The notes below the pieces were generated by a model that was given only the letters and a program-made list of their open reading frames with translations, searched no databases and had not been told where the DNA came from. The position numbers and the translations under genes are program-made. This document shows, piece after piece, positions 3,066 to 63,786 of a stretch of 64,000 bases of DNA. Position 1 is the stretch's first letter. Every line of letters starts with the position of its first letter. Source of the stretch: Polyangia bacterium (lineage in GTDB: Bacteria > Myxococcota_A > Polyangia > Palsa-1104 > JAEUJZ01); contig JBGANQ010000002.1 in assembly GCA_044222245.1 (NCBI GenBank), forward strand, positions 103,667 through 167,666, in the 5' to 3' direction.

Positions 3066-3467
3066 GAGGGTCCTCCTATTGGCACGGTCTTGCGACTCTC
3101 CGGCCCCGGGGTCCGGGGCTGGGTTGCGAGCGTTGTTACCTTTAATTTCCAATTGACCATTTTTTTCCACTCTGACCTGGCGGTTTTAATGGGTACCTAT
3201 CTGGTATTTCCATTGCCGTTTAACGGTATGTTTCGCTACCTCTCTACAAACCCACCATTTCGGCCTACCTTCACCCACCACAAGCAATTCCGGTCACGGC
3301 TATCACGCCGTTGGCGGTGCAGCAACTAAAATGCAATTCTTCTCTATGCGTATATCGGTGAGCAGAAAAGCTTATTGCTGCACGGGTCGTAAAGATACTG
3401 CGATGAACTCGCTTATGAGGTTCAGGATGGCTGCTCTACGTTTGATGGGTTGCAAAGGGGCGCTTCC

Positions 3468-4970: not shown

Positions 4971-6081
4971 CCCGCGCAGCGAAGGGGGGGCCGCCCAGGG
5001 GGCGCAGCTGCAGACGCTGGGCGCGCTGCGCTCGGTCTGCGCCAGCATGCACCGCCTGTTTGGTCACGTCCGCAACATCGCGCAGTCCGACGCCGCGGTG
5101 CTGCTGCTCGGTGAGAGCGGCGTCGGCAAGGAGCTGCTGGCGCGGACCCTGCACGAGCTGTCCCCGCGCCGTGGTCGCCGCCTGGTGGTGCTGGTCTGCA
5201 CCGGCCTGTCGGCAGCGCGGCTCGGCGCCGCCCTGTACGGCGAGGAGCCGCCGGCGATCCTCAAGCGGCCGGCGCGCCTGCCGGCGACCGCCGCCCCACT
5301 CCAAGGGCCCGAGGGCCGGCGACCAGCGACCGGACGGCACAGCGGCGCGCTCGCCCAGGCGTGCGGCGGGACCCTGCTCCTGGACGACGTGGCGGCGCTT
5401 GATGCAGAGGGGCAGTCCGAGCTGCTGCGGGCGGTCAACAGCGAGCCGTCGCTACAGCGGCTGTCGAGTCGGCGCGGCCCGCGGCTGCGCCTGCTGTCGA
5501 CGAGCACCGAGGACATCGCCAAGGCGGTGCGGCTGGGCCGCTTCCGTCCTGACTTATACCACCGCCTGGCCGCCGCCCGGCTCGAGGTCCCGCCGCTGCG
5601 TGAGCGGCGCGGCGACGTCGCCCTGCTCGCCGGCGAGCTGCTGGCGGCGGCAGCGGCGCACCACCGCCGGCCGCTGCCCACCCTGCATCCCGAGGCGCTG
5701 GCGCTGCTCGCCGGCTATCCCTTTCCCGGCAACCTGCGCGAGCTGCGCGACGTGATGGAGCTGGCCCTGCTGCACAGCCGCGGCCCGGTGCTGCGGGCGG
5801 CCGATCTGGTGGAGCTGCTGTACGCGGTGCCGGTGCCGCCGCGGGTCGAGATTCCGCTCGGCTGGACCCTGGCGGCGGCCGAGCGCGAGGTCATCCTGCA
5901 GACCCTCGCCGCGCACCGCGGCAACCGCCAGGAGACCGCCGACACCCTGGCCATCTCGCGACGCACCCTCTACGAGAAACTGGCCCGCTACAAGGCCCAG
6001 GACGGCACCGCCCTGCGCGCTGGACGGCGCCCCCCGCGCCGCCGGCAGGCCGCACGCGCCGCGCCCGAGCCAGGCTGCTAG
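4960..6081 (+). CDS. Sigma54-interaction-domain AAA+ protein with C-terminal Fis-type HTH; no receiver, no GAFTGA
   Basis: Walker A GESGVGKE, Walker B LLLDDV, PPLRERRGD and FPGNLREL motifs. HTH reads REVILQTLAAHRGNRQETADTLAISRRTLYEKL. The ATG overlaps the upstream gene by 11 nt. Confidence 0.8.
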   Translation: MDSSPRSEGGAAQGAQLQTLGALRSVCASMHRLFGHVRNIAQSDAAVLLLGESGVGKELLARTLHELSPRRGRRLVVLVCTGLSAARLGAALYGEEPPAILKRPARLPATAAPLQGPEGRRPATGRHSGALAQACGGTLLLDDVAALDAEGQSELLRAVNSEPSLQRLSSRRGPRLRLLSTSTEDIAKAVRLGRFRPDLYHRLAAARLEVPPLRERRGDVALLAGELLAAAAAHHRRPLPTLHPEALALLAGYPFPGNLRELRDVMELALLHSRGPVLRAADLVELLYAVPVPPRVEIPLGWTLAAAEREVILQTLAAHRGNRQETADTLAISRRTLYEKLARYKAQDGTALRAGRRPPRRRQAARAAPEPGC

Positions 6082-17160: not shown

Positions 17161-18392
17161 GCGCGCTTTTGCGGCTGTTCTCGCCCGCCTACCGGCATGC
17201 CCTCAAGGCCGAGGCGGAGGGGCGCTATATCGAGGCGGCGCGCGCCTTCGCCCTGTGCGGGCAGCGCCGCAAGGTCGCCGAGATGCACCTGTTGGAGGCG
17301 GAGAAGCGCGGCACGGCGGCCAGCGCCCTGCGCGAGCTGCAGGTCGCGGCGCACTTTCTGGGCGCGGATGAGCACGCGGATCAAGAGCTGCTGCGGCGCG
17401 TCGGACACGCCTACCTGCGCTCGCTGCAAAAGGGCGTGCTGTCGGCCGCCGACCGCGAGCTGTGCCACGAGGCGGCAGAGCTCCTTTTGCGCAGCGGCGA
17501 TGCCAAGGCGGCGGCGGCGGCCTACGAGCTCGGCGGCGACAGCGAGCGCGCGGCGACGATGTACCAGCAGGCCGGCGAGGTCGAGAAGGTCGAGGCGCTG
17601 CTCGGCGCCCAGGAGCAGCAGCGCCGCCGCGCCCACGCCGAGCGCGAGCACTTCGAGGCCTACCGCACCCACCTGGAGCTCGGGCAGCGCGATGAGGCGC
17701 TGGCGGCGCTCAAGGCCTGTCTGGCGAGCGTCGCCATCGCCGACCGCGCCGAGCCGCTGCGCCTTTACGAGGAGCTCAAGGCGCATCTTCTGACCTCCGG
17801 GGTGGTGCGGCTGCGCAGCACCGCGGCGCTCGGTGCCGGGCAGGCGGGCGCCGAGTCGGCGGACGGCGCAGCGCGGGTGCAGGTCTTTGCCGGCGCGCTG
17901 CCGCTGCGCATCGGCCGCGAGCCGGGCTGCGCGCTGCCGCTGCGCGATCCCGGGGTCTCGCGCGAGCACGCGCAGCTCGAGCTCACAGGCGATGGCAGCT
18001 TCGCCCTGCGCGAGCTTCTGGCCAAGAACGGCACCCTGCTCGGCGGGCTGCCGCTGCACCCGGGCAGCTGCCTGCCGCTGCGCGACCGCGGTGAGATCGG
18101 CATCGGCCAGCATGTGACGCTGCGCTTCCAGGTGGTCGAGCAGGAGCTGCAGCTGGAGCTGCTGCGGGGCCTTGAGCGCGGGCTGCGGCTCCACGTCGCG
18201 CCGCGGCCGCTGGCCCTGGTGCTGGACGGTGGGCAGCGGCTGGCCGAGCTGCACTTCGTCAAGGGGCGACCGCTCTTGCGGGTGCTTGCGGGGGCGCCGT
18301 GGACCCTCAATGGGCGCCGGGTGCCGCCGCAGGTGCAGCTTGTGCGCGGGGATCTTATCGAGCTGGCCGGGCAGCGCATCGAGGTGCTGTGA
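17157..18392 (+). CDS. FHA-domain protein with a helical (TPR-like) N-terminal region
   Basis: In-frame part of track ORF 16608..18392 starting at GTG 17157 (GTGA overlap with the SLT stop). The FHA core reads LRIGREPGCALPLRDPGVSREHAQLEL..NGTLLGG. Confidence 0.75.
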   Translation: MSALLRLFSPAYRHALKAEAEGRYIEAARAFALCGQRRKVAEMHLLEAEKRGTAASALRELQVAAHFLGADEHADQELLRRVGHAYLRSLQKGVLSAADRELCHEAAELLLRSGDAKAAAAAYELGGDSERAATMYQQAGEVEKVEALLGAQEQQRRRAHAEREHFEAYRTHLELGQRDEALAALKACLASVAIADRAEPLRLYEELKAHLLTSGVVRLRSTAALGAGQAGAESADGAARVQVFAGALPLRIGREPGCALPLRDPGVSREHAQLELTGDGSFALRELLAKNGTLLGGLPLHPGSCLPLRDRGEIGIGQHVTLRFQVVEQELQLELLRGLERGLRLHVAPRPLALVLDGGQRLAELHFVKGRPLLRVLAGAPWTLNGRRVPPQVQLVRGDLIELAGQRIEVL

Positions 18393-20026
18393 GCTCGCTG
18401 TGGCAGCGGCTGCGCCGCGCCCTGGGTTCCGGGCCCGCCAGCGACCGCCAGTCCGGCGCTCGCGCCCCGCTGCCGCCCGCTGCCGGTGACCTCGGCGAGG
18501 GGGGGCGTGACAGCCGGACCACCGCGCCCAGCCGCTGGGCCGGCCGCGCCGCCAGCCCGAGTGTCGCCCGCGGGGCGCCGGCCGCCGACCTGCCGGCCGC
18601 CGGCGAAGAAGAGGCGCAGCAGATCTATACCTACGTCCGCCGCATCGGACCCCTGGATGAGCGTCCCGAGCGCTGCGCGCCCGAGATCCTCGCCGCGCTG
18701 CGCCGCCTGTGGCAGGCCGGGCGGGAGGCCCAGGCGGTGAGCCTGGGCGGCGCCCTGGCCTCGGCCTTGCCGCACGATGCCGCGGTGCAGCTTGGCGTCG
18801 CCGAGCTCCTGTGCATGCAGCGCGACTATGGCAGCGCCGAGCCGCTCCTGCAGCGCGCCTTGGCCGCGGCCGAGCACGCGAGCCGGCTGCGCGCCCGCTT
18901 CCTGCTCCACGAGGTGGCGCTGGCCGCGGATCAGGCGGAGCTGGCGCTGACCCACCTGACGCACCTTCTGGCCGAAGATTTCGCCTATCCGGGGCGCGGG
19001 CGCGGCTTGCGGCGGTTCAGGGCGCGCTGCCGGCCGCTCGCGGGCGAGGCCGGACTGGACGCGGCGCCGACCGCTGCCCTGCCGGCCGTGCCCGCGGGGC
19101 CGGACGGCGGCCTGGCGGTGCCGGCCGCTCCGACTTTGCTCGGGCTGCCGAGCGGCGGGACGGCGCGCTACCAGCTGCTGCGCGAGCTCGGCTGCGGCAG
19201 CGCCGGGACCGTCTACCTGGCGCGCGACACCGAGCTGCAGTGCGAGCTGGCGCTCAAGGTGTTCCACCCGCGGCGGCGGGACGGCGGCGGCGATGAGGCG
19301 CTGTTGCGGGCCCTGCACGAGGCCCGCCTGCTGGCCGCGGTGCGCCACCCGGGCGTCATCGCGCTCTACGACCTCGCCGGCGAGCTGCCGGGCGAGTCGG
19401 ACGGACCGGGCAGCGGACCGCCGCGCCTGGCCATGGAGCTGTGCCGCGGCGGCTCGCTGCGCGCCCGGCTGCGCCAGGGACCGCTGCCGGTCGCGGCGGC
19501 GCTGCAGCGGACCGCCGAGCTGCTGGAGACCCTGGCGGCGGTCCACGGCAGCGGGATCGCCCACGGCGATCTCAAGCCGGAGAACCTGCTGTTCCGCGGC
19601 CCGGAGATGCACCGCGGCGACCTGTCGCCCGCCGAGGCGCAGCTGGGGGATCTGGTGCTGAGTGACTTTGGCCTCTCGCGGCTCGGCGAGCCGGCAGAGC
19701 CGACGGGGTTCCTGGGCACCCCCGGCTACGCCGCGCCCGAGCAGCTCGGCGGCGCGCCGGCCACCGCGGCCAGTGACGTCTACGCGGTCGCGGTGGTGCT
19801 GCTCGAGATGCTGCTCGGCGAGCCCTCGCTGCGGCGCGCCGACGCGCTCAGCGGGTCGCCGCCGCAGGTCCCGGCGGCGCGCTGGGAGGCGCTCGCCAGC
19901 GCCGGTGCCCCCGCGGGACTTGCCGACTTTGTGACCGGCCTGCTGGCAGGCGAGCCTGCCGCGCGGCCGACGGCGGCAGCGGCCCTGGCGCAGCTCCAGC
20001 GGCTGCGCGCGGGCGGCGATGTCTAG
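18389..20026 (+). CDS. Ser/Thr protein kinase with a long non-kinase N-terminal region
   Basis: GTG 18389 forms a GTGA overlap with the FHA gene stop. Kinase core reads LGCGSAGTVYLA..LALKV..HGDLKPENLL..SDFGLS..GTPGYAAPEQ. Confidence 0.85.
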   Translation: MSSLWQRLRRALGSGPASDRQSGARAPLPPAAGDLGEGGRDSRTTAPSRWAGRAASPSVARGAPAADLPAAGEEEAQQIYTYVRRIGPLDERPERCAPEILAALRRLWQAGREAQAVSLGGALASALPHDAAVQLGVAELLCMQRDYGSAEPLLQRALAAAEHASRLRARFLLHEVALAADQAELALTHLTHLLAEDFAYPGRGRGLRRFRARCRPLAGEAGLDAAPTAALPAVPAGPDGGLAVPAAPTLLGLPSGGTARYQLLRELGCGSAGTVYLARDTELQCELALKVFHPRRRDGGGDEALLRALHEARLLAAVRHPGVIALYDLAGELPGESDGPGSGPPRLAMELCRGGSLRARLRQGPLPVAAALQRTAELLETLAAVHGSGIAHGDLKPENLLFRGPEMHRGDLSPAEAQLGDLVLSDFGLSRLGEPAEPTGFLGTPGYAAPEQLGGAPATAASDVYAVAVVLLEMLLGEPSLRRADALSGSPPQVPAARWEALASAGAPAGLADFVTGLLAGEPAARPTAAAALAQLQRLRAGGDV

Positions 20027-43153: not shown

Positions 43154-45019
43154 TCACGAGCCGTTGCCATCGAGCTCGGGACCGGGCGGCCGGGGCAGCG
43201 GTGGCCCCGGCGCCAGAGGCTTGGGTCCGGCGCTCTTTTTAGGGGAGGGCCCCGCCGACTCTTCCCCTTCTTCATTATTGAGCCGGACGTGGACCCGGCG
43301 AAACCCGGCGGCGTCGGCGTGCTTGCCGACCAGGGACTCATATTTGTAGGTCTTGGCGCCGCGCGGACCGGTGGCTCGGCACGAGCCGCCCGGGCGGATG
43401 ACGGCCTCGATGCCCGGGCTGTGCTTGTCCGATGGCCTGAGGGCGAGCTGCGACTCCTGACCGCACTCGATCGAGTCGACCGCGTCTTCCTCGGAGTAGA
43501 CAAACCGCACCTTGATCTCGCGCGGGTCGGCGGGCTCCTTGGCGGCATCGGCGGTCGGCGCGGCGGCGGCGGTCGGCAGATCCGCGGGCGCAGCGGTGAG
43601 ATCGAGGCTCGGGGTGACCAGCAGATCGACGGCCGCCGCGGCTCGCGCGCTGCCCAGATCGGCCACCGCTGGCGGCACCGGCGCCAGCGTGCGACCGGCG
43701 GTCAGCGCCGGCATGCGGGCGAAAAAGGAGAGCAGCCCGGCGGCACCGCCCAGGCCGAGCACCAGGATGGCGACGATGCGCAGGCCGGGGTGGCGGCGTC
43801 GCGGCGGCGGCGGCTCTGGCTCTCCTGCGGCGCCCGGCTCCCGCGCCTTGACCTGCTTGAGCAGGTCGCTGAGCAGCGCCACTCCCATCTGCGGCGTCTC
43901 GTTGGCCGAGTAATGCGGCGGCGGCTCCTCGGCTCGCTTGCTCGGTGGCGGCGCTGCTTCCTCACTGCGCTTGTTCTCGGCGCGCCCGTGGGTCGGCCAC
44001 TCGGGCGTGGTCGCGTAAAGCCCCACCAGCGGCTTGGCCGCGCGGCCGCCCGCCGCCACCTTAGCGAACGCTCCTTCGGGCAGCTGGCGGATAAGCTGCA
44101 GCAGCTCTCCCGCGTCCGCCGGTCGGCGGGCTGGGTCCTTGTGCAGGACGTTCCCTAAAAGATCCTCCAGCTCCTGCGACAGCGCCCGCCGGCCGTTGGT
44201 CTTGACCCGCTGCTGCCGCTGCACGAGCTGGCGGATGTGGCTGACCCGGCTGACCTCGGCCTCCCCGCCAAGCTCCAGCGAGCCGTTGAGCATCTCGAGC
44301 AGCAGCATGCCCAGGGAGTAGACATCGGTGCGCAGCGTCGCCTCTCCGGTGGCGAGCCGCTCGGGCGCCGCGTAGCGGGTGTTCTCGGCGCCGCGCACCG
44401 TCGAGTCGTCCGACAGCAGCGAGCTCGCCAGCTTGCCGATGGCGAAGTCGGTGACCTTGACGATCTCGATGGGTCCCTCGGCGGTCTCCTTCTGGGTGAG
44501 AAACAGATTCCGCGGCTTGAGGTCGCCGTGCACGATGTTGCGGCGGTGGGCGGCGGCGATGGCGCTGACGGTCTGGCGCCACAGGATGAACGCCCGCTCG
44601 CTGGAAAGCGGTCCGCTGCGCTCCAGGTGGCGCGCCAGGTCCTCGCCCTCCAGGTGCTCCATGGCGATGTAGGGCCGCCCGTCTTCGGCGCGTCCGCTGT
44701 CGTAGAGCGTGACCACGTGCTCGTGCTTGATGTTGCCGATCGAGCGCACCTCGGTATCAAAGCTATCCAGCTCCGCCTTGGTGCACTGCAGCAGCTTGAT
44801 CGTCACCATCCGCCCGAGCTGCGGCTGCTCGGCGGCGTAGACCTCGCTGCGCGGACCGACGCCGATGCGACTCTGCAGGATGTACTTGCCGACGAGGATG
44901 CGGCGCTCGACGATCAGCCGGGCTTGATCGCGTGGGCACAGCTCGAGCTGGGCCGCGTAGATCTGCCGGCACTGGGGGCACAGCTTGTAGCCCGAGGGTG
45001 ACTGCGGGGATGCTGACAC
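43154..45019 (-). CDS. Membrane Ser/Thr protein kinase with an N-terminal zinc-ribbon-like CxxC..C motif
   Basis: GTG 45019. CPQCRQIYAAQLELCP, kinase core IGVGPRSEVYAA..IKLL..HGDLKPRNLFL..TDFAIGK, one TM segment, and an unknown C-terminal domain. Confidence 0.85.
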   Translation of the reverse strand: MSASPQSPSGYKLCPQCRQIYAAQLELCPRDQARLIVERRILVGKYILQSRIGVGPRSEVYAAEQPQLGRMVTIKLLQCTKAELDSFDTEVRSIGNIKHEHVVTLYDSGRAEDGRPYIAMEHLEGEDLARHLERSGPLSSERAFILWRQTVSAIAAAHRRNIVHGDLKPRNLFLTQKETAEGPIEIVKVTDFAIGKLASSLLSDDSTVRGAENTRYAAPERLATGEATLRTDVYSLGMLLLEMLNGSLELGGEAEVSRVSHIRQLVQRQQRVKTNGRRALSQELEDLLGNVLHKDPARRPADAGELLQLIRQLPEGAFAKVAAGGRAAKPLVGLYATTPEWPTHGRAENKRSEEAAPPPSKRAEEPPPHYSANETPQMGVALLSDLLKQVKAREPGAAGEPEPPPPRRRHPGLRIVAILVLGLGGAAGLLSFFARMPALTAGRTLAPVPPAVADLGSARAAAAVDLLVTPSLDLTAAPADLPTAAAAPTADAAKEPADPREIKVRFVYSEEDAVDSIECGQESQLALRPSDKHSPGIEAVIRPGGSCRATGPRGAKTYKYESLVGKHADAAGFRRVHVRLNNEEGEESAGPSPKKSAGPKPLAPGPPLPRPPGPELDGNGS

Positions 45020-45230
45020 GCAGATTTATTTATATCACGCCGCAGCGGCTTTATGAGCGGCCGCAGCGGCTCCTAGGAGCAGATAGCTGTCCCGCGCAGC
45101 AGAGTACATGTGCTGGTACATGTCCCGGAACGCCGCCGCGCTCTGCTTGACCGCGCCGCGGCGAGGCGCGGCCCGGAGCCGGTGTAGGCAGCAGTAGGAC
45201 CGCGCCGCAAGAAGACATGACTGCCCTGGC

Positions 45231-52624: not shown

Positions 52625-53036
52625 TTGGTCGGCACGCAGATCGGTGTCTATAAGATCACGCACCTGCTCGGTGAAGGTGGGATGGGCACTGTCTACGAGG
52701 CAGTGCATGAGCAGCTTGGTAAGCGGGTTGCGATCAAGGTCTTGCGCAACGATATGGCGCGCAATTCCGAGGGCTTGACGCGCTTTTTCAACGAGGCCCG
52801 AGCGGTCAATTTGATCGAGCACCCGGGGCTGGTGCAGATCTTCGAGTTCGGCGAGCTGCCGAGCGGCAGCGCCTATCTGGTGATGGAGCACCTGCAAGGC
52901 GAGACCCTGAGCGCGCGCCTGAAGCGGCGCGGCCAGCTGCCAGAGCCCGAGGCGCTGTACCTGTGCTACCAGCTGGCCGCGATCCTGGCCGCCGCCCACG
53001 AGCGCGGCATCGTCCATCGGGACCTCAAGCCGAGTA
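52625..53036 (+). pseudogene. 5' fragment of an interrupted Ser/Thr kinase gene (subdomains I to VIb)
   Basis: YKITHLLGEGGMGTVYEAV..VAIKVL..YLVMEHLQG..GIVHRDLKPS. After 53036 the frame continues as nonsense that is antisense to the next gene. Confidence 0.85.
53028..53036 (+). repeat. Core copy 1 (left junction), AGCCGAGTA, inside GGACC-N13-GGTCC
   Basis: GGACC 53020-53024 and GGTCC 53038-53042. Confidence 0.9.
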
Positions 53037-53106
53037 CGGTCCAGCCGTGGGTGACCGCCGGCCCGGCGATCCGTGGCAGGGGCGCAGGAGGGACTTGGCG
53101 GCGCCC

Positions 53107-54255
53107 TCAGAAGCGGAACAGACCGACGAACGCCGGCGAGCCGACTCCCACGATCGGGCTGCCGAGGGCGGTCAGCTTGCCCGCCTTATCGATGCGGAAC
53201 ACCACCAGGTTGCCCAGGTTGGGCGTGGCCGCGGTGCGCTGGTTGGCGACCACAAGCAGGGTGCCGGTGTCGTCCACCGCGAAGCTGCGCGGGACCTGAC
53301 CGCGCGTCGGCTCGTTGCCGATCAGGGTGACCACACCAGTGGCCGCGTCCAGGGTGAAGATCGCGATCGCATCCAGGCCGCGGTTGGAGCCGTAGACAAA
53401 GCCGCCGCTTGGGTGGACGGCGAGCTCGGCGCCGGTGTTGTTGGTGGTGTTGCCGGCGGGCAGGGTGGACACGGTGGCTTGCGGCGAGAGCCTGCCGGCG
53501 GCGGCGTCGTAGGCGTAGGTGGTCAGGGTGCTGGCGGTCTCGTTGAGGCCGAAGGCCCACTTCTGGCTGGGGTGAAAGGCCAGGTGGCGCGGCCCGGCGG
53601 CCGCCGGCGGGCTGACCGCGGGCGGCGTGTTGGCGGTCAGCTTGCCGCCGGAAAAGCTGTACTGGGCGATGAGGTTGGCGCCCAGGCAAGGGACAAAGGC
53701 GTAGGCGCCGCTGGCGCTCGGGACCACCTGGTGCGCCTTGGCCCCCGGCGACTTGGTGTCGCTGGCGGCGCCGAGCGAGCCGTCCCCGAGCACCGGGAAC
53801 ACGGCGACCGAGCCGCCGCCATAGTTTGCCACCAGCACCGCGTCGCCCCCCGGACTGACCGCGACGTGCGCCGGTCCCGCCCCGAGCGTGCCGGTCTTGC
53901 CGCGCGCCGTGAAGCCGGCGGTGCGCGGGTCGAAGCCGAACGCCAGCACCTCGGAGCTGTTCTCATCCACCGCGAACACCCGCGCGCGCTGGGTGTCCAC
54001 GGCGAGGAACGAAGGGTTTGTCCCCGCCGCCGTCGCGCCCTTCAGGGTGAGCGTCCCCGCCGCCACATCGACCAAGAAGGCGCGGAGCTGCCCGTCGCTC
54101 GAGCCGGTGAGCGCGTACACCGGCCCAGGCGCTGCTGCCGCGTCCACCGCCGTCGCCCCGTCCGGCGTGCCGCCGTCTACGGGCGGCGAGCTGCTGCTCG
54201 TCTGCGAGCAGCCTAGGGTCGCCCACAACATCGTGACCAAGATTGGAAGTCGCAC
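53107..54255 (-). CDS. Lipoprotein, 7-bladed beta-propeller lactonase family (6-phosphogluconolactonase-like)
   Basis: GTG 54255 and lipobox LGC. LVANYGGGSVAVF, PRHLAFHPS, ELAVHPSGGFVYGSNRG and PRSFAVDDTGTLLVVANQ. Confidence 0.75.
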   Translation of the reverse strand: MRLPILVTMLWATLGCSQTSSSSPPVDGGTPDGATAVDAAAAPGPVYALTGSSDGQLRAFLVDVAAGTLTLKGATAAGTNPSFLAVDTQRARVFAVDENSSEVLAFGFDPRTAGFTARGKTGTLGAGPAHVAVSPGGDAVLVANYGGGSVAVFPVLGDGSLGAASDTKSPGAKAHQVVPSASGAYAFVPCLGANLIAQYSFSGGKLTANTPPAVSPPAAAGPRHLAFHPSQKWAFGLNETASTLTTYAYDAAAGRLSPQATVSTLPAGNTTNNTGAELAVHPSGGFVYGSNRGLDAIAIFTLDAATGVVTLIGNEPTRGQVPRSFAVDDTGTLLVVANQRTAATPNLGNLVVFRIDKAGKLTALGSPIVGVGSPAFVGLFRF

Positions 54256-54515
54256 CAGAGCAGTCTACCCGAGGGCCCGCCTGCCTGCACCTCGCCGTCG
54301 CCGAGCTGCCCTGGCGGCCGCCGGCGCTTGCCCGCCGCGCCGCCTGCACGGTCGGCTGAGCCATCCGCATTCAGTCCCGGCCGCGCGCCCGCCCGCAGTG
54401 TAGCGCCGGTCGGCGGGCCGCCTTCCCTCAAGCCGAGCAAGGTCGCCCGGCAGCTTGCCCGTCGCGGCGGCGCGCGCGGGGAAGGCTTGCGGAGCCGGTC
54501 GCGCGCCCCCGCCGG

Positions 54516-55133
54516 CTACAGATACTTTTCGATCTGGCCCAGGATCTCCAGCCGATCCACCAGGTCGGTGAGGTAGTCGAGCTTGTCGCTGGCCAGGGTG
54601 ATCACCGGCGAGAGGTCGTAGCGCGCAAACCAGTCCTCATAGAGCTTGTTGAGCCGCTGCAGGTAGGCGATGGGCAGGTCCTTCTCCATCGCTCGACCAC
54701 GCCGGGCGATGCGCTGGCGCAGGGTCCGCACCGGGGCGCGCAGGTAAATCATCAAGTCGGGCGGCGCCAGCGAGCCCGAAGCCACGGTGTACAGCTCGTG
54801 ATAGGTCTGCCAGTCGCGGCGATCGATGGCGCGCTGCTTGTAAAGGTTGCGCGCGAAGATCTCCGCGTCCTCGTAGATCGTCCGGTCCTGGACCACGGTG
54901 CCAGGCTCGCGCTCCAGCTCGCGGTGCAGGCGGAACTTGTGGGCGAGAAAGTAGATCTGAGACTTGAAGGCGTAGCCCTTCATGTCGCGGTAGAAGTCCG
55001 CGAGGTAGGGGTTTTGGTCATTGGGCTCGAGGAACGGCTTGAACCCGTACCACTTGCAGAGAAAGCCGACGAGCTCAGTCTTGCCAGCGCCGATGTTGCC
55101 GGCGACCGCGATGAAGCGCTTCTTGCTGGACAT
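54516..55133 (-). CDS. Deoxynucleoside kinase family protein
   Basis: P-loop AVAGNIGAGKT, then EPNDQNPYLADFY, FKSQIYFLAHKF and QDRTIYEDAEIFA. Confidence 0.85.
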   Translation of the reverse strand: MSSKKRFIAVAGNIGAGKTELVGFLCKWYGFKPFLEPNDQNPYLADFYRDMKGYAFKSQIYFLAHKFRLHRELEREPGTVVQDRTIYEDAEIFARNLYKQRAIDRRDWQTYHELYTVASGSLAPPDLMIYLRAPVRTLRQRIARRGRAMEKDLPIAYLQRLNKLYEDWFARYDLSPVITLASDKLDYLTDLVDRLEILGQIEKYL

Positions 55134-55168
55134 GAAATCGCCCTACGCTACGCCGCGGGGCGCAAAGT

Positions 55169-56482
55169 TTACAGAAATTCTGCACCGACCACCTGGGGCG
55201 CCGTCGCGCGGCCGCCCCGGCCCATGGGCTGCAGCCGGCCGTAGGTCAGCGACCGCCACAGCCACTCCAGCGGGCCAAAGCGGAAGCGCGTCAGCCAGGC
55301 GCGCGCGAACAGGATCTGGAAAAGGAACACGGCCAGCGTAATCGGCACAAGGTGGCTGGCCCGCACCCGACCGATGAGTCCCAGACCCCAGCCATAAAAA
55401 AGGAAGGTGCACAGGAGGCTCTGCATCAGATAGGTCGTCAGCGCCATCTGACCCACCGGCGCGAGCAGCAGAAGGACCCGCCGCCAGGCGGCGCGCTGCA
55501 GCAGCAGGACCACCGCCGCGGCGTACCCGCAGGCAAGGAGCATCGTCCCGAGCTCGGCGAGAACCGACAGCAAGCTCCCGACCGCCTCCGGCAGCACGAT
55601 CTTGCGCAGGCCGAGGAAGTAGCGCACGGCAGAGAGCGAGGAGCCGGCGAACCCGAGCCCCAGACCCCAGGCCGCGAGCTTGCGGAAAAGCGGCAGGCTG
55701 TCGGGGAGGCGCTGGAAGAGCCGCTGCGTCCCCGCCCAGTAGCCGATCAGGAAGTGACCCCAAAGGCCCGGAATGTACGGCACCCAGAACCTTCCCACAT
55801 GATAGTAGACCTGCTGCAGGTGCAGCTGGGTCAGCAGGCGCCGATCGTGGCCGGTCATGGCGGCGAGCAGCTGCGCGCGGTAGGCGTCGAAGTCGGCTGG
55901 CTTGGCCAGGATCGGCTCGATGGCCTTGGCGACTCTGGGCAGCGAGAAGACGAGCTGCGGGATAAGGGCCAGCGCGAACGCCCACAGAAGGACGCGGCTG
56001 CCGCGCTGGCGCCGAAACAACAGCAGGCCCACGCCGGCGAGCGCGTAGCTCCACAGGATGTCCCCCCACCACAGCAGCAGCACATGGCCGATGCCGATAA
56101 GCGCCAGCGCCGCCATCCGGCGCAGGTGCGTCCCGACCGCGCTGCGTCCTCCCGCTTCGGCGCGCTGGAGCTGCAGCGCGAACCCCAGACCGAACAGGAA
56201 GGTGAGCAGCGCCATTGCCTTGCCGTTGACAAACACGCCGAGCAGGACCAGGAACACGCGGTCGAGCACCCGGGTCTGCGCCATCAGCGTGGCGCGCGGC
56301 ATGAACGCGCGGCCGCTGAACCAGGGCACGGTGTTGGCAAGCAGCACCCCATAGAGCGCGCAGCCGCGCAGCACGTCCAGGACCGCGAGGCGCTCGCCCG
56401 CTGCCGTGGGCGCCGCCGGTGCCGCGGCCAGGGCCGCTGGGTCTGGGTCGCCGTCTGCCGCGCGCTGGATTGCCAGGTCCAT
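55169..56482 (-). CDS. DUF418 (YeiB-like) polytopic membrane protein
   Basis: RLAVLDVLRGCALYGVLLANTV.. and about 10 hydrophobic segments. C-terminus reads ..RFGPLEWLWRSLTYG. Confidence 0.75.
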   Translation of the reverse strand: MDLAIQRAADGDPDPAALAAAPAAPTAAGERLAVLDVLRGCALYGVLLANTVPWFSGRAFMPRATLMAQTRVLDRVFLVLLGVFVNGKAMALLTFLFGLGFALQLQRAEAGGRSAVGTHLRRMAALALIGIGHVLLLWWGDILWSYALAGVGLLLFRRQRGSRVLLWAFALALIPQLVFSLPRVAKAIEPILAKPADFDAYRAQLLAAMTGHDRRLLTQLHLQQVYYHVGRFWVPYIPGLWGHFLIGYWAGTQRLFQRLPDSLPLFRKLAAWGLGLGFAGSSLSAVRYFLGLRKIVLPEAVGSLLSVLAELGTMLLACGYAAAVVLLLQRAAWRRVLLLLAPVGQMALTTYLMQSLLCTFLFYGWGLGLIGRVRASHLVPITLAVFLFQILFARAWLTRFRFGPLEWLWRSLTYGRLQPMGRGGRATAPQVVGAEFL

Positions 56483-56599
56483 GCACGGGAGTATACCTGC
56501 CCGCGCCGCCGCAGCCAGGCGCCGCTCGCCAGCCTTCCGCAGGCGCGGCCGCGGCAGCGCGGAAGGTCTGCGCCGGCGCCGCCCTCGCGGCGGACCGTG

Positions 56600-56608
56600 A
56601 GCCGAGTA
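56600..56608 (+). repeat. Core copy 2, AGCCGAGTA, inside GGACC-N13-GGTCA
   Basis: GGACC 56592-56596 and GGTCA 56610-56614. It lies in the intergenic region between the DUF418 and oxidoreductase genes. Confidence 0.85.
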
Positions 56609-56821
56609 AGGTCACCCGTGACGGCGACCCCCCGCAGCATTCCGCCTCCGCGCGTCCGGCTCGGCCCTCTGCGGGCCTTAAGCCGGAACGATGGTCAGTG
56701 CCGGCTGCGTCCGCGGTCGACCGCACCTGCCGGGCCGCGGCCCGCGCGTCTCGGGGTCGGGGTCGCGGGCGGGCGCGGCAAAAGGGTTGTACGCCGCCGC
56801 CGTCCTGGCCACAATCATCGC

Positions 56822-59092
<2,271 letters not shown>

Positions 59093-59254
59093 TCCGCCTT
59101 CCCCGCGTCTCCTGCCCACCCTCCTTCGCGCCGCCGCGCTGGCCTCGGCCTGCCCCGCCGCCGGCGCAGCGGCAGGAGCCGGAGCCCTCCCGCCGCCCTT
59201 CCCTCGGCCGCGCGGAGGCCCGGCCAGCGCCGGGGGGCCGCGCCTTGGACCTTG

Positions 59255-59263
59255 AGCCGAGTG
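59255..59263 (+). repeat. Core copy 3, AGCCGAGTG, preceded by GGACC-N3 and followed by ACATC
   Basis: GGACC 59247-59251. AGCCGAGTGACATC matches the right junction AGCCGAGTAACATC at 13 of 14 positions. Confidence 0.85.
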
Positions 59264-59369
59264 ACATCGCGCCGCATCCAGCTCGTCGGTGAGGCGCAGG
59301 TGGGGATGGGAGCGGACAGCTTGCGGACAGGCTCCCGCGGGAGCTGCAGTCCTGCGCGCGGTCAGCAGC

Positions 59370-61142
59370 TCAGCGGCGCTGGATCATCTGCTCGAGGTTG
59401 TACATCTGCCGGGCCTTGGGCGGCGCGGCGGCGGCGGGGCTTGGCGAAGGGGGTGACTTGGAGAGGTCGGCGGCGCTCGGGTCGGCGTCGAAGTTGTACT
59501 GCGAGCGCTCCCGCTCCCGCTGCCGCTCGTTTTCGACCTGCTGCTGCTCGAAGCGATCCCACATCGCCCGCGGCAGCGTCAGCGCGTAGGCGAAGTCGAA
59601 GTGCTCCCGCTTGCTCGGCGCCACATCGAACCGCCAGGTCAGCAGGCCGTTGGCGTCCTTGTAATCGGCCATCCGCGAGGCGCCCATGAACTTGGTCTCG
59701 ATGCTCGGATCCGCCGAGACCGGGAACTGGTCTTGGATCAACAGCTGCCGGCTCTTGCCGGAGTAGTTGGCGATCTCGATCTGCCACTGGTTGGTGATGG
59801 TGACCTTCTTGGCGAACACGCCCGACCCCTCGACATCCCCCTTGAGCAGGGTGCGCTTGACCTGCAGCCGCTGATCGGGACCCAGGTAGATGTCAAAGTC
59901 CTCGCCCGCCGCCGCCAGGTGGCTGAACGCCGAGGTCCCGACGAAGTTACCGTCGAGAAACACCGAGACCTTGCCCAGCAGCAGGGGGATCCCTGTGCCA
60001 TTATTCAGCCGCGCGCGCAGGAACACCTGGGCCGTCAGCGAGGGAATCGCGACGTGCAGCAGGTTGGCCGCCAGCTTGCTTGTCTTCAGCGTGACCTGAT
60101 GATCCGCGTTATCACTGGCGATCGTCTCGCGCCCGGGGAGCTGCACGGTCAAGGTCGTCGAGGCGAGCGCCGCCCCGGCTGCGGACTCCGCCGGAGCATT
60201 GTCCTCGGCGCGACTGTCGGCGCCTCCCGCGCGCCGCGCGCTCCCGCCGGGCGGGGTGAGCGAGCCTGCCGTCACCCGCCACGCTTGCAGCATGCCGGGC
60301 GCGGTGCCGACGGCGGGGCGCGCGGTGGACAGGGTCATGCTGACGTCTTCCCAGGCCTCGCCCGTGGTCTGCCGGATGTTGGCGTTGGAGACAAGGTAGT
60401 ACGTCCCCCCTTCCGCCGAGCCGCGCAGGTCGTACAGCGGCGTCCACGAGACGTTGGTGACGGTGTACTCCAGGGACACCTCGCCTTCGACCCCGGGCTT
60501 GCCGTGATAGGTCACATCGACCTCAAAGGCCGAGCGGCGGCGCGCCGTCATCGCCTCGCTCAGCTTGCGGGCCGCCTCGTCGCGCTCGCGCTGCAGGTTC
60601 TGGACGAGCAGGTTGGCGGCGCGGATCTTGACCTGGTAGCCGCCGCGCCGCTCTTCCATGAACTCGACGGCCGCCTTCCAGCCGTCCGTCTTGATCGTGC
60701 CGAGCCGCAGCTCGTGATCGCTCTGCGCCGTAGTCAGGGCTGCGAGGTTGCCAAGCAGGCGGAGCTGCTCGGTAAAGTTGGCGAGCCGGTCGCGCTCGGC
60801 GTTGAGCTTTTGCTCCAGCTGGTCGACGGCCAGCTTGAGCGGGTCGGTCAGCCACTCGCGCTCCGAGGCGGGCTCGGTCGGGCGCACCGAGACGCCGGTG
60901 ATGGTCACCCCCTTGCCCGCCGCGCGCACCGAGTCGCGCACCAGCGCCACGGGCAGGCTGTGAAAGCGCACGGCGCCGCTTCCCTTATCGGCCGGCAGCG
61001 CCTGCACGCGACGCACCACGGCGCGATCGGAGAACACGAGCACCGAGTCGATCTTGCCGGTAACCGGCAGCACGGGCGTCTCCGCCCGGGCCGACTGGGT
61101 AAAAAGAACGAGCAGCGTCGTGAGCAAGCACTTCCGGATCAT
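59370..61142 (-). CDS. DUF4139 (mucoidy-inhibitor MuiA-like) secreted protein
   Basis: ATG 61142 with AGGAG 7 nt upstream and signal peptide MIRKCLLTTLLVLFTQSARA. VLVFSDRAVVRR..AVRFHSLP..WTPLYDLR..VFLDGNFVG. Confidence 0.75.
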   Translation of the reverse strand: MIRKCLLTTLLVLFTQSARAETPVLPVTGKIDSVLVFSDRAVVRRVQALPADKGSGAVRFHSLPVALVRDSVRAAGKGVTITGVSVRPTEPASEREWLTDPLKLAVDQLEQKLNAERDRLANFTEQLRLLGNLAALTTAQSDHELRLGTIKTDGWKAAVEFMEERRGGYQVKIRAANLLVQNLQRERDEAARKLSEAMTARRRSAFEVDVTYHGKPGVEGEVSLEYTVTNVSWTPLYDLRGSAEGGTYYLVSNANIRQTTGEAWEDVSMTLSTARPAVGTAPGMLQAWRVTAGSLTPPGGSARRAGGADSRAEDNAPAESAAGAALASTTLTVQLPGRETIASDNADHQVTLKTSKLAANLLHVAIPSLTAQVFLRARLNNGTGIPLLLGKVSVFLDGNFVGTSAFSHLAAAGEDFDIYLGPDQRLQVKRTLLKGDVEGSGVFAKKVTITNQWQIEIANYSGKSRQLLIQDQFPVSADPSIETKFMGASRMADYKDANGLLTWRFDVAPSKREHFDFAYALTLPRAMWDRFEQQQVENERQRERERSQYNFDADPSAADLSKSPPSPSPAAAAPPKARQMYNLEQMIQRR

Positions 61143-61364
61143 CACCAGGCTCCTGTGCAAAGGCCAAGTTCGCGCGCGATGCGGTGCTGGGGATGAACGT
61201 GTGAGCCCCTGCAAGGATCTATCGACGCTAGCCGGGCGCCGCAGAGCCATTTGCGCCGGAGGTCCCGAGGCTCCCGGGAGGTGGGCGCTACCAAGATCTG
61301 TCCGCAGCCCCTCCCCACGCTGCGCGGACAGCTTCCCGAGGCATCTCACTTGGAGTCGACTATT

Positions 61365-61373
61365 AGCCGAGTA
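61365..61373 (+). repeat. Core copy 4 (right junction), AGCCGAGTA
   Basis: Followed by ACATCATGCTGGTC, which is the continuation of the kinase reading frame. Confidence 0.9.
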
Positions 61374-62467
61374 ACATCATGCTGGTCGCCGACTCGGCCA
61401 TGCCCTCGGGGGAGCGGGTGAAGCTGCTCGACTTCGGGGTCGCCAAGCTCGCCATCGCCCTGCACGCGGCGGACAGCCAGGTGCGCACGCACGCCGGGCA
61501 GACCCTGGGCACCCCCCAGTACATGTCGCCCGAGCAGTGCCGCGATGTCAGTCAGGTCGATGGGATGACCGACGTGTACGCCCTGGGCGTCATCCTTTAC
61601 CAGATGCTTTCGGGGCAGGTGCCGTTTATAAGCTCGGGCGAGTTTGCCATCGCCGCCATGCACCTTTACGAGCCACCGCCGCCGCTGCAGTCCCGGGCGC
61701 CGCAGGTGACCGAGCTCACCGCGGAGCTTGTCCACCGCATGCTCGCCAAGAACAAGGAAGAGCGCCCGACCATGGCGCAGGTGCTGACGGTGCTGCAGAC
61801 CATGGGCATCAACGTCACCGCCAGCACCCAGAAGGCCTCGGCGATCTCGCTTGGCGGGCAGTCGGGGTCGATCTCGATGGCCGACATCCAGGCGGCCGAG
61901 CGCCTGGGCACGCTCGGTGAGCTGAGCGGAACCAGCGGTCGCAGCATCCCGGCGGCGCTGCTGAGCGCGGCGATCCCGGTGGTGCCGGCCAACAACCCAA
62001 CGACGCTCGGCACCAGCACCGGGCAGCTGACCCACCGCTCCAGCCGCCTGTTCTGGGGGGTGACCGCCGCCGCGGGGGCGAGCGTGCTGGCCGTGACGCT
62101 GCTCGCCAGCGGCCTGCTTAGCGACAACAAGACCGCGACCACCGCGCCGGTGCGCTGGCAGGTGAGCACGCGGCCGCCGGGGGCGACGGTGCTGCGCTCG
62201 GACAACGGCACCATCCTCGGCAAGACGCCGTGGCACTACGAGCAGCCGGCGAGCGCTGGCAAGCTGCAGGTCAGCATCCAGTACACCGGCTACCAGACCA
62301 ACACCCTGACCCTGGACAGCGGCCGCGACGAGACCCTGGAGCTGACCCTGGTGCCGATCCCGGCGCCCAAGGTCGAGCCGCCGCCGCCGCCGCCGCCCAA
62401 GCACAAGAGCCGCTCCCACAAGGCCAAGCCCGACGAAGAGGGCGATCCCAAAGAAGAGCTGCCCTAG
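61374..62467 (+). pseudogene. 3' fragment of the interrupted Ser/Thr kinase gene (subdomain VIb Asn to XI, plus a TM segment and C-terminal domain)
   Basis: (N)IMLVADSAMPSGERVKLLDFGVAK..GTPQYMSPEQ..DVYALGVILYQML..RPTMAQV. An in-frame TAG at 61364-61366 immediately precedes CCG AGT AAC. Confidence 0.85.
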
Positions 62468-62476
62468 CCGCGCCGG

Positions 62477-63625
62477 CTACAGCAAAGGGGCGACGCGCTG
62501 CGCCACCTCGTCGTGGAACCACTTGACCGCGGCCTCGATCTGACCGATGCGAAAGTGGCTGTCGGCGCCTGCCCGCAGGCCGGCCTGGATCGACTCGGCG
62601 ATCGCCAGATCCTCGCGCTGAAACACCGAGCCTTCGATGAGCTGGAAGGTCTTGTCCCAGTAGCGGCGCTGCTCCTCGGTCTCGGGCGGCCGCGGGATGA
62701 GCATCCGGTGGTGGTAAAGCAGGTGCTCGGGGCCGTCGGGGAAGATGGTGAGCAGGGTCACCCAGTCGGGATGGAACACGAGGATGGTATTGGGAAACAG
62801 CAGATAAAACGGCGTCGTCATCGCCCGCAGATCCCAGCGCTCCGGCGGCAGCTCGCGCGCCTGGAGGAGCGTCTTGCGCGCCCCGATCGAGCGGCTGTGC
62901 GGCGGCAGCGACCGCACAAGGACATTGTCGAGAAAGAACCGCGAGATGGTCTCGCGGTGCAGCGAGCGGACGTGGTAGCCCTCCAGGAAGGCATCGATGA
63001 GCAGCTTCCAGTTGGCCGGCCGGCGACCGGTCGCCTCGTGATGGACGACATGGGTGCCAAGGCCCAGCCCCGTGAGCTCGGCGGCGAGCGGACCGAGATA
63101 GGAGTCGATCGGCAGCTTGGCGCCGCGCCCGCCCGGCTGGACAAAAAGGAGGCCGCAGCGCTCGGCCAGCGGCACCCGCACAAGCCCCGCGTCCTCGTCG
63201 CGCAGGCTGGGAAAGCAGTCGCGCCGCGGCACCCGCAAAAGGGCGCCGCCGAGCTCGTACGACCAGGCGTGGTAGCGGCAGACAAAGGCGCGCGCGTTGC
63301 CGCGTCGCTCGCTGACTAGCTGGGTCCCGCGGTGGCGGCAGACGTTGAGGAAGGCGCGCACCTCGCCGTCGGGCGAGCGGACCAGGAGCAGCGGGATCCC
63401 CGCCGCGTCATGGGTCAAAAAGTCGCCCGGCTCCTTGAGCTCGGAGGTGTGGCCGACGACCAGCGGCAGGCCTTGGAACAGCGCCCGCTGCTCGGCCTTA
63501 TAGAACTTCGGACAGGTGTACTGCTCGACGGGAATCAGCCAGTCTTGCGGCGCGGCGGCGGCGGGGCCCGGCTCGGCCATCGCCAGCAGTTCGGTCAGCA
63601 GCTCAAGCTCCAGCGCGCGCTCCAT
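62477..63625 (-). CDS. Rieske [2Fe-2S] aromatic-ring-hydroxylating oxygenase alpha-subunit-like protein
   Basis: Rieske motif CRHRG..(17 aa)..CRYHAW, with a catalytic domain downstream. ATG 63625 lies inside track ORF 62477..63739. Confidence 0.85.
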   Translation of the reverse strand: MERALELELLTELLAMAEPGPAAAAPQDWLIPVEQYTCPKFYKAEQRALFQGLPLVVGHTSELKEPGDFLTHDAAGIPLLLVRSPDGEVRAFLNVCRHRGTQLVSERRGNARAFVCRYHAWSYELGGALLRVPRRDCFPSLRDEDAGLVRVPLAERCGLLFVQPGGRGAKLPIDSYLGPLAAELTGLGLGTHVVHHEATGRRPANWKLLIDAFLEGYHVRSLHRETISRFFLDNVLVRSLPPHSRSIGARKTLLQARELPPERWDLRAMTTPFYLLFPNTILVFHPDWVTLLTIFPDGPEHLLYHHRMLIPRPPETEEQRRYWDKTFQLIEGSVFQREDLAIAESIQAGLRAGADSHFRIGQIEAAVKWFHDEVAQRVAPLL

Positions 63626-63786
63626 GCACCCACGGTAGCATAGACCGCGGCGGCGCCCTGGAAGGGGCAGCGCGCAGCGGAGGAGGGCCCCGCGGATCGC
63701 TCGCGTCGTGGAGGCTGGCGGCGGGACGCGGCGGTCCACGGGACCCTTCTTCGCTGCGCGCTGCCGGGGCGCGCGGGGTGACCGGC

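Follow-up and report, generated by a model that had tools for sequence, protein, structure and literature searches.

The interrupted kinase and its insert

The analysis concerned a window of 64 kb (the whole stretch of contig JBGANQ010000002.1 that was analysed, 64,000 nucleotides, with coordinates counted from its first base) from the genome of an uncultured myxobacterium, in which the gene of a Hanks-type Ser/Thr kinase is interrupted in its catalytic loop by an insert of 8.3 kb that is divided by short direct copies of one site (Table 1). To the left of the first site copy (S1) the kinase reads ...IVHRDLKPS and to the right of the last (S4) it continues as NIMLVAD.... Fusion of positions 52625-53036 to 61374-62467 yields a protein of 501 amino acids in which the Pkinase domain is complete (residues 9-275, E 7e-50) and which also has a weak PEGA match.

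The original prediction for this DNA had described four copies of a 9-nt core, AGCCGAGTR, that partition the insert into three cassettes. Exact matches to this core were found at 53028, 56600, 59255, and 61365, all on the forward strand and nowhere else in the window. The flanks that it had listed were also in place: GGACC lies 3 nt upstream of the core at 53020, 56592, and 59247 and CGACT takes this position at 61357, GGTCC (53038) and GGTCA (56610) lie 1 nt downstream of the cores at 53028 and 56600, and ACATC, the right flank of the kinase, directly follows the cores at 59255 and 61365. An unguided repeat search of the window recovered the same site family as repeats of 21-22 nt (D3 at 53020/54423/56592 and D5 at 56593/59248/61358). 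Together with related contigs this search also revealed a fifth copy of the core at 54431 (AGCCGAGCA; ccctcaAGCCGAGCAaggtcg) between the lactonase and deoxynucleoside kinase (dNK) genes. The sites do bound the modules as predicted, but there are five of them, and the insert therefore consists of four cassettes and not three.

All five site copies are intergenic or located at the kinase junctions. The genes along the array are oriented -, -, -, +, -; all of them fall in non-recombinase families and they leave no room for another gene. The S1 junction is identical in 10 independent contigs (L016-L025), and the core of S4 with its right flank is present in every split allele of relatives at 87-100% identity. 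A likeness between the left end of the first module and the sequence after the third of the four predicted copies (TCCAGC..GGTGA) is present as had been noted, but its offsets differ (+3 and +14) and likeness of the flanks stops at about 23 bp.

Table 1. Features of the interrupted kinase gene and of the cassette array in the window (positions from the first base of the window).
Feature	Position	Strand	Evidence
Kinase N-terminal half, ending HRDLKPS	52625..53036	+	Pkinase match of the fusion; fused kinase collinear with intact homologues P0001 and P0243
Site S1 (attL-like), GGACC-TCA-AGCCGAG-TAC-GGTCC	53020..53042	+	Left half = kinase codons, right half = start of cassette 1
Cassette 1: 7-bladed lactonase gene (53107-54255)	53043..54422	-	Pfam Lactonase, E 4e-75
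Site S1b (fifth copy), TTCCC-TCA-AGCCGAG-CAA-GGTCG (TTCCCTCA-AGCCGAG-CAAGGTCG)	54423..54445	+	Between lactonase and dNK genes
Cassette 2: deoxynucleoside kinase (54516-55133) and DUF418 membrane protein (55169-56482) genes	54446..56591	-	Pfam dNK, E 3e-50; DUF418, E 3e-43
Site S2, GGACC-GTG-AGCCGAG-TAA-GGTCA	56592..56614	+	Repeat search, core and dyad match
Cassette 3: molybdopterin oxidoreductase gene (56822-59092)	56615..59246	+	Pfam Molybdop_Fe4S4, Molybdopterin, Molydop_binding
Site S3, GGACC-TTG-AGCCGAG-TGA-CATCG	59247..59269	+	Repeat search, core and dyad match
Cassette 4: DUF4140/DUF4139 protein gene (59370-61349)	59270..61356	-	Pfam
Site S4 (attR-like), CGACT-ATT-AGCCGAG-TAA-CATCA	61357..61379	+	Right half = kinase codons N-I-M
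Kinase C-terminal half, NIMLV... to stop	61374..62467	+	362-aa protein P0002 in public assemblies

Anatomy of the site

Alignment of the five copies with the junctions of related loci showed a dyad-symmetric site of 23 bp with the layout 5-3-7-3-5, in which a left arm nGAYnnnn and a right arm nnnnRTCn enclose a 7-mer. Only this 7-mer, AGCCGAG, is constant across the individual cassettes, and the 9-mers that flank them differ at position 8 or 9. The predicted 9-nt core thus stood for its first seven bases, while bases 8-9 vary with the right flank, as do the three bases preceding the 7-mer with the left flank. The right flanks are TA-aggtc for the molybdopterin oxidoreductase cassette, TG-acatc for the DUF4139 cassette, CA-aggtc for the dNK cassette, TA-cggtc for the lactonase cassette, and TA-acatc for the kinase.

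In the kinase the inverted half-sites GAY-N4 and N4-RTC are the Asp and Ile/Val codons of HRDLKPSNI, GAC/GTC and GAT/ATC being reverse complements, and the site encodes D-L-K-P-S-N-I as GAC CTC A AGCCGAG T AAC ATC. Of 21 positions compared between S3 and the intact kinase site as reconstructed, 18 agree. Half-sites that fit the same geometry were found independently at junctions in related contigs, namely GCGACA-N13-TGTCGC at L009:23 and TGATG-N13-CATCA at the right junction of L002 and L003. The core sites of tyrosine recombinases consist of two inverted half-sites around a short asymmetric overlap, and the two inverted half-sites with a 7-bp overlap found here therefore suggest a simple tyrosine recombinase.

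The window contains three more Ser/Thr kinase genes, all of them uninterrupted (near 931 on the minus strand, 18299-20023, and 43154-45025). The gene near 931 carries GAT-ctca-AGCCCGA-gaac-ATC, which has the same pseudo-palindrome geometry and another overlap, AGCCCGA, and is consistent with a need for matching overlaps.

A stretch of S1b (CCTCAAGCCGAGCAA) matches, over 15 nt without a difference, the kinase site in an intact homologue with 75% identity (L001), which has AGC and not AGT for Ser. This identity hints that the cassette may once have resided in a kinase of the AGC type.

The anatomy of the site bears directly on an alternative explanation, according to which a DDE transposase acting in trans, with a strong target preference, mobilizes the cassettes as non-autonomous transposons and the AGCC... 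repeat is a target duplication of 8-9 bp into which further elements re-inserted. The inverted 5-mers are symmetric about the 7-mer, at a distance of 3 nt, and not about a duplication of 8-9 bp, although short inverted repeats flanking the repeat are in themselves what a transposon would bring along. Likewise, 8-9 bp is a typical length for a target duplication, yet the repeats that bound single cassettes agree over 7 nt only, with a difference at position 8 or 9. The repeat always consists of the codons of the local kinase (AGCCGAGTA here and AGCCATCC in a second broken kinase, L027), as a duplicated target should, but the kinase flanks also match the half-site consensus of the cassette ends, which a transposon model does not predict, and the empty allele described below is exact. 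The cassettes encode no recombinase in cis, in keeping with mobilization by a transposase from elsewhere; no transposase was found in the window or in the related loci examined. Taken together, we consider this explanation unlikely.

Frequency of the site

The number of AGCCGAGTR matches alone is weak evidence, as 4 were found against 1.15 expected and at least 4 occurred in 6 of 100 shuffles. The bare 9-mer count, which barely exceeds that of the shuffles, is what speaks for the explanation that the repeats are chance matches or that the arrangement is an assembly artefact. We regard this explanation as highly improbable: the same layout occurs in many independent assemblies (JGI, ENA, Logan, NCBI), the longest exact run common to S2 and S3 is 10 nt and is therefore too short for an assembler to make the join by accident, and the extended dyad pattern GAYNNNNAGCCGAGNNNNRTC has 4 matches against 0.02 expected, with at least 4 in 0 of 100 shuffles. 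A pattern for the right half of the site, AGCCGAGNNNNRTC, has 7 matches in the window against 0.57 expected, and five of the seven are the sites.

A generic intergenic repeat had been named as the finding that would speak against attachment sites. The window holds no further copies, and a scan of genome and metagenome contig collections with GGACCKYRAGCCGAGTRNNNTC gave 50 and 64 single hits, respectively, which lie in unrelated phyla and correspond to about chance level plus a few HRDLKPSN kinases. The metagenome contig collection is without the JGI contigs of the source lineage, and the scans therefore show only that the site is no widespread repeat. Scans of viral contigs for the conserved right-end arm and for the empty-site (attB) sequence gave 0 matches, and neither a known RNA family nor a tRNA target was found in the region.

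Empty sites and cassette variation in relatives

A homologue search with the fused kinase identified the intact homologue with 75% identity (P0001, encoded on L001) in the same neighbourhood, with ABC transporter genes upstream and Rieske and Band_7 genes downstream, as well as proteins that comprise only the C-terminal half at 100, 91, and 87% identity. Full-length alleles sit inside 90% clusters of the homologue set. One of the contigs with an intact kinase (L148, from activated sludge) is 98.6% identical to the window over 2054 nt on the N-terminal side and 99.2% identical over 1094 nt on the C-terminal side. It has the same neighbour genes and a single copy of the 9-mer, and its empty site is exact (...catcgGGACCTCA-AGCCGAGTA-ACATCatg..., that is GGACCTCA-AGCCGAGTA-ACATC). 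Judged by this allele, recombination between S1 and S4 would give back the reading frame exactly. L149 is an intact allele of the 91% relative and is 99.3% and 99.9% identical to the split halves of that relative; P0256 is likewise intact (about 91%), and P0257, from the relative at about 87%, is intact through the catalytic loop. Filled and empty sites thus coexist in three lineages.

The contigs behind the C-terminal halves all carry AGCCGAGTA followed by ACATCATGCTGGTC, and their cargo upstream of it varies. It is the same array as in the window in L011, two alpha-2-macroglobulin-like genes and an LNS2-type gene in L002-L007, a DUF7478 gene in L008, and a lactonase gene with methyltransferase, acetyltransferase, amine oxidase, SET, and spermine-synthase genes in L009. 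The lactonase of L009 adjoins a copy of the core and is 83% identical to the lactonase of the window. The assembly breaks off 10-33 nt left of a site in four contigs (L008, L009, L010, and L014), which is the pattern expected where neighbours vary within a sample.

In two contigs from different JGI samples (L012 and L010) the end of the molybdopterin oxidoreductase cassette is joined to the start of the same cassette ([Mo cassette end ...ccttggaccttg]-AGCCGAGTA-[Mo cassette start aggtcacccgtg...]). The cassette end that is followed by the start of the DUF4139 cassette at S3 is thus followed by its own start in L012 and L010, which shows that left and right flanks assort independently. At this junction, too, core bases 8-9 follow the right flank and the preceding 3 nt follow the left flank, and the exchange point therefore lies inside AGCCGAG(T). 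The proposal that att-like sites bound separately acquired modules, and the module-sized polymorphism that was to be looked for, hence found support in the exact empty site of L148, in this end-to-start junction, in the differing cargo of L002, L008, and L009, and in the four contigs that break off next to a site.

The ends of some cassettes are related beyond the site itself. About 80 bp at the left end and 65 bp at the right end of the L008 cassette are homologous to the DUF4139 cassette of the window (z = 13 and 11 against shuffles), despite the DUF7478 gene of L008 being unrelated to the DUF4139 gene. The right end of 65 bp next to the C-terminal half is common to the window, L002, and L008 despite different neighbouring genes.

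Proposed mechanism

We consider it probable, with some reservation, that the insert is a tandem array of four cassettes which entered a single attachment site in the kinase by conservative site-specific recombination. The target would be the 23-bp pseudo-palindrome of kinase codons, with the GAY and RTC half-sites around the asymmetric 7-bp overlap AGCCGAG, and each circular cassette would bring along a site with an identical overlap. Strand exchange in the overlap would insert the cassette and leave two hybrid sites that are still usable, so that more cassettes could enter at any site and the array could grow and shrink. Recombination between any two direct sites would delete the cassettes between them, and between S1 and S4 it would regenerate the uninterrupted kinase gene. 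Since none of the cassettes has a recombinase gene, the enzyme, putatively of the tyrosine class, would have to act in trans; the circular intermediates and any activity of the system at present are likewise inferred.

Several observations weigh against this reading. The first concerns the enzyme: a recombinase or transposase next to the copies, which the original prediction had suggested looking for, did not turn up. None of the sizeable open reading frames (ORFs) of the 64-kb window has a domain of an integrase, resolvase, or transposase, nor do the called genes of five related loci (L002, L009, L027, L028, and L143), and the enzymatic mechanism is therefore an inference. No circular form or excision product was directly observed, and the end-to-start junction in L012 and L010 could equally represent a second molybdopterin oxidoreductase cassette in tandem or an excised circle. 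In L012 the last 1162 nt of the two oxidoreductase copies show 100% identity, which falls to 65-86% upstream; this contig mosaic could be a tandem copy with gene conversion or a mixed assembly, and thus partly a product of assembly. The left junction of L026, a contig of the 91% relative (positions 1720-1840, catcggga|attcaccgcgg), lies about 5 nt short of where the core would begin and has no AGCCGAG, and other alleles of the L026 kinase also break at HR(D/E) (P0248, P0249, P0250, P0251, and P0255), which is outside the model. Outside the 23-bp site the arms of the window cassettes are no more alike than shuffled sequences (z -1.7 to +2.4), contrary to the expectation that the aligned flanks would score above shuffled controls. 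The dyad and right-half patterns were written post hoc, with the sites already seen, and independent support therefore comes from other loci. Finally, stretches of 84 nt ending at the cores fold no better than shuffles, those of the S4 type excepted.

Some of these points would also follow if a single island had been inserted long ago, the internal copies being relics or coincidence and the strain differences having arisen by homologous exchange via the kinase halves together with ordinary deletions and duplications. Arms that are unrelated between cassettes beyond 23 bp, the right end of 65 bp common to the window, L002, and L008, the left junction of L026 without a core, and the mosaic of the L012 oxidoreductase copies, which resembles gene conversion, all agree with such a history. 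It would, however, leave unexplained why five copies within 8.3 kb agree in their 7-mer, geometry, strand, and intergenic position, where the expectation for the right half is 0.57 matches in the window. Nor would it account for an end-to-start junction that keeps to the 7-mer exactly in two samples, for the occurrence of intact beside split alleles in three lineages, or for the break of an unrelated kinase locus (L027) at these same codons, with arms that conform to the half-site consensus. We therefore hold a single old insertion to be improbable.

For the array formed by site-specific recombination no accessory-site or arm-type architecture is claimed, as none is supported. Candidate arm-type sites (GCGGACAG(C/G)TT-like motifs and the TCCGCAG..GCGCGGA hairpin) were dropped, the pattern not being enriched in the window (4 matches against 13.9 expected) and neither the frequency nor the folding energy of the hairpin being conspicuous. 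Hairpins of 28 nt (TCCGCAG-N14-..GCGCGGA) lie at 56536-56563 and 61301-61328, each ending 36 nt before a core (S2 and S4), and the hairpin also precedes the right junction in L002 and L008.

Other interrupted kinases

Four kinase genes at three other loci (L027, L028, and L143) are broken at the same codons. The kinase of L027 is a different one in a different neighbourhood, with an N-terminal half that is 58% identical. TetR, YceI, and hydrolase genes interrupt it after HRDLKPS; the locus has an 8-bp direct repeat of its own, and its arms GATCT/AGACC fit the half-site consensus. In L143 a peptidase M14 gene separates the kinase halves after HRDLKPE, and the start of the C-terminal half is missing. 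In L028 (10394-10600) two different N-terminal kinase halves, both broken at HRDLKP, stand tail to tail with 169 bp between them, an arrangement which looks like the product of an inversion or like an empty element between two targeted kinases. The gap of 169 bp holds a hairpin with a 9-bp stem (TTCCGCAGC...GCTGCGGAA).

Among the 120 best protein matches to the N-terminal half, dozens of kinase halves end with HRDLKPx followed by non-kinase tails; the search favours short proteins, so that the counts of broken kinases are no frequencies. Identical N-terminal halves occur with divergent tails, and kinases that are just 50-60% identical occur with related tails. By manual count about 18 of 36 HRDLKPx tails have Ile or Val as the second residue, which corresponds to the RTC half-site.

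Two other positions of breakage were seen in the same set of matches. One class of kinases is broken right after HRD (P0126, P0152, P0183, P0187, P0196, P0174, P0188, P0189, P0227, and P0240), with tails that share ..TTQRRRQ.. or ..HRRR.. motifs across kinases of about 50-60% identity, which points to a further family of small elements whose target in the same loop lies about 13 nt upstream. Other kinases (P0132, P0155, P0158, P0164, P0168, and P0184) are broken right after YMSPE and have the common tail ..TLQLSDGD.RQTGSWGLIGD; judging from these protein sequences, YMSPE is a third conserved kinase motif with recurrent insertion.

On a wider scale we propose, as a tentative reading that may well prove too broad, that the catalytic-loop codons (GAY-N15-RTC) could serve as a multi-copy attachment site across the kinases of Polyangia for cassettes that lack a recombinase and use one of the host, with the kinases acting as integron-like capture platforms that would be switched reversibly. 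If this is true, the landing pad of a gene-capture system would be the universally conserved catalytic motif of a protein family which myxobacteria carry in hundreds of copies, which would help to explain the gain and shuffling of accessory genes in the very large myxobacterial genomes and would constitute a natural reversible on/off switch for single kinases. The recombinase, acting on a compact site of 23 bp with a 7-bp overlap that is free to vary, could then also serve as a tool. Annotators should bear in mind that supposedly truncated kinases in these genomes may represent the two parts of a single interrupted gene.

Neighbouring genes

A Rieske/ring-hydroxylating oxygenase gene (62477-63739) lies just 3' of the kinase in the window and is also present in L011 and L013-L015. 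It is missing in L012, L148, and the 87-91% relatives, where Band_7 directly follows, and in L010 it is broken into two ORFs; the gene is thus a second presence/absence polymorphism beside the array. Elsewhere in the window (3393-6081) two adjacent overlapping ORFs both have sigma-54 activator AAA+ domains, the first with a receiver domain and no DNA-binding helix-turn-helix (HTH) and the second with only the C-terminal part of AAA+ plus HTH_8. This pair may be a frameshifted or duplicated NtrC-type regulator.

Comparison with known systems

Elements bounded by attachment sites and devoid of integration genes, which depend on the recombinase of another element, are known as cis-mobilizable elements (CIMEs) and take part in tandem accretion, in which newcomers integrate into an att site of an element already present and rows of elements with hybrid sites in between arise, for example in the Streptococcus islands related to ICESt1/ICESt3; they derive by decay from integrative and conjugative elements (ICEs) or integrative and mobilizable elements (IMEs) and occupy the 3' end of a housekeeping or tRNA gene, which stays functional (PMC5704250). 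The array resembles them in that its units are bounded by five direct att-type sites with hybrid sites between the units, lack integration genes, and have an empty attB in relatives (L148 and L149). It differs in being made of cassettes of one to two genes and in its target, which is the middle of a kinase gene that is thereby broken. By its structure the array would qualify as CIME-type accretion in all respects save a known integrase-bearing partner; no related ICE or IME with a cognate integrase at the same site was seen among at least 15 related contigs examined.

Partitioning by direct copies of a short site is shared with PAISt of Streptomyces turgidiscabies, a large conjugative island at the bacA 3' end with its own tyrosine recombinase gene intSt at one end, which has one internal and two flanking direct copies of 8 bp and excises as modules between any pair of them (PMC4057263). 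The array, in contrast, has no recombinase and five sites, and splits its gene internally. The tandem islands at ssrA in Dehalococcoides are among the closest analogues (PMC3146451).

Splitting of a coding sequence at a short repeat, with precise excision that restores the frame, is known from skin in sigK, SPbeta in spsM, and the nifD element, all of which are single units that encode their own recombinase (PMC4191935, PMC5499854). The kinase shares with these genes the split at a short repeat and the existence of intact and split versions, whereas its array is multi-unit and has no recombinase within.

With integron arrays, including integrase-less attC clusters, the array has in common small cassettes without recombinase between sites, a strain-variable content, and, as far as the site arrangement indicates, an enzyme that would act in trans on every cassette boundary. 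The attC sites of integrons have a GTTRRRY core within imperfect palindromes of 57-141 nt, and integron cassettes are for the most part without promoters and share one orientation behind a common promoter. The sites of the array, by contrast, lack the attC/attI core and are short dyads of the double-strand type, AGCCGAG with half-sites of 8 bp; no intI adjoins the array, and its genes run in both directions, apparently with their own upstream regions.

The integrative mobile elements exploiting Xer (IMEX; CTX/TLC at dif) and the dif modules of Acinetobacter plasmids also lack a recombinase and integrate serially at a short dyad by means of the Xer recombinases of the host, with regeneration of the site. 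The cassettes of the array are similar to them in lacking a recombinase of their own and in their proposed serial integration at one short dyad site. The dif site has the layout 11-6-11 with a conserved XerD arm (TTATGTTAAAT), arms ending ..ATAA / TTAT.., and a centre of 6 bp. In a comparison by eye with a dif consensus that may not match the dif of the host itself, the site of the array differs in its layout of 8-7-8 and in its inner arm ends (CTCA / TAAC), and just 6 nt, ATGTTA, are common to the two and out of register. The array is also located in a protein-coding gene and not at the replication terminus.

Checks against integron attC sites, sites of the dif type, targets in tRNA genes, and RNA families already known led to the exclusion of all four, and a DDE transposon with target duplication was judged unlikely on account of the imperfect flanking 9-mers and the spacing of the inverted 5-mers and because no transposase was found in the window or the related loci. 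In the literature we found no report of mobile elements that target the catalytic-loop codons of kinases. What is new in comparison with the systems above is a target that lies inside a kinase gene, midway along it and at the codons of the catalytic loop, the small size of the recombinase-less units, and the breakage of other kinases at the same codons.

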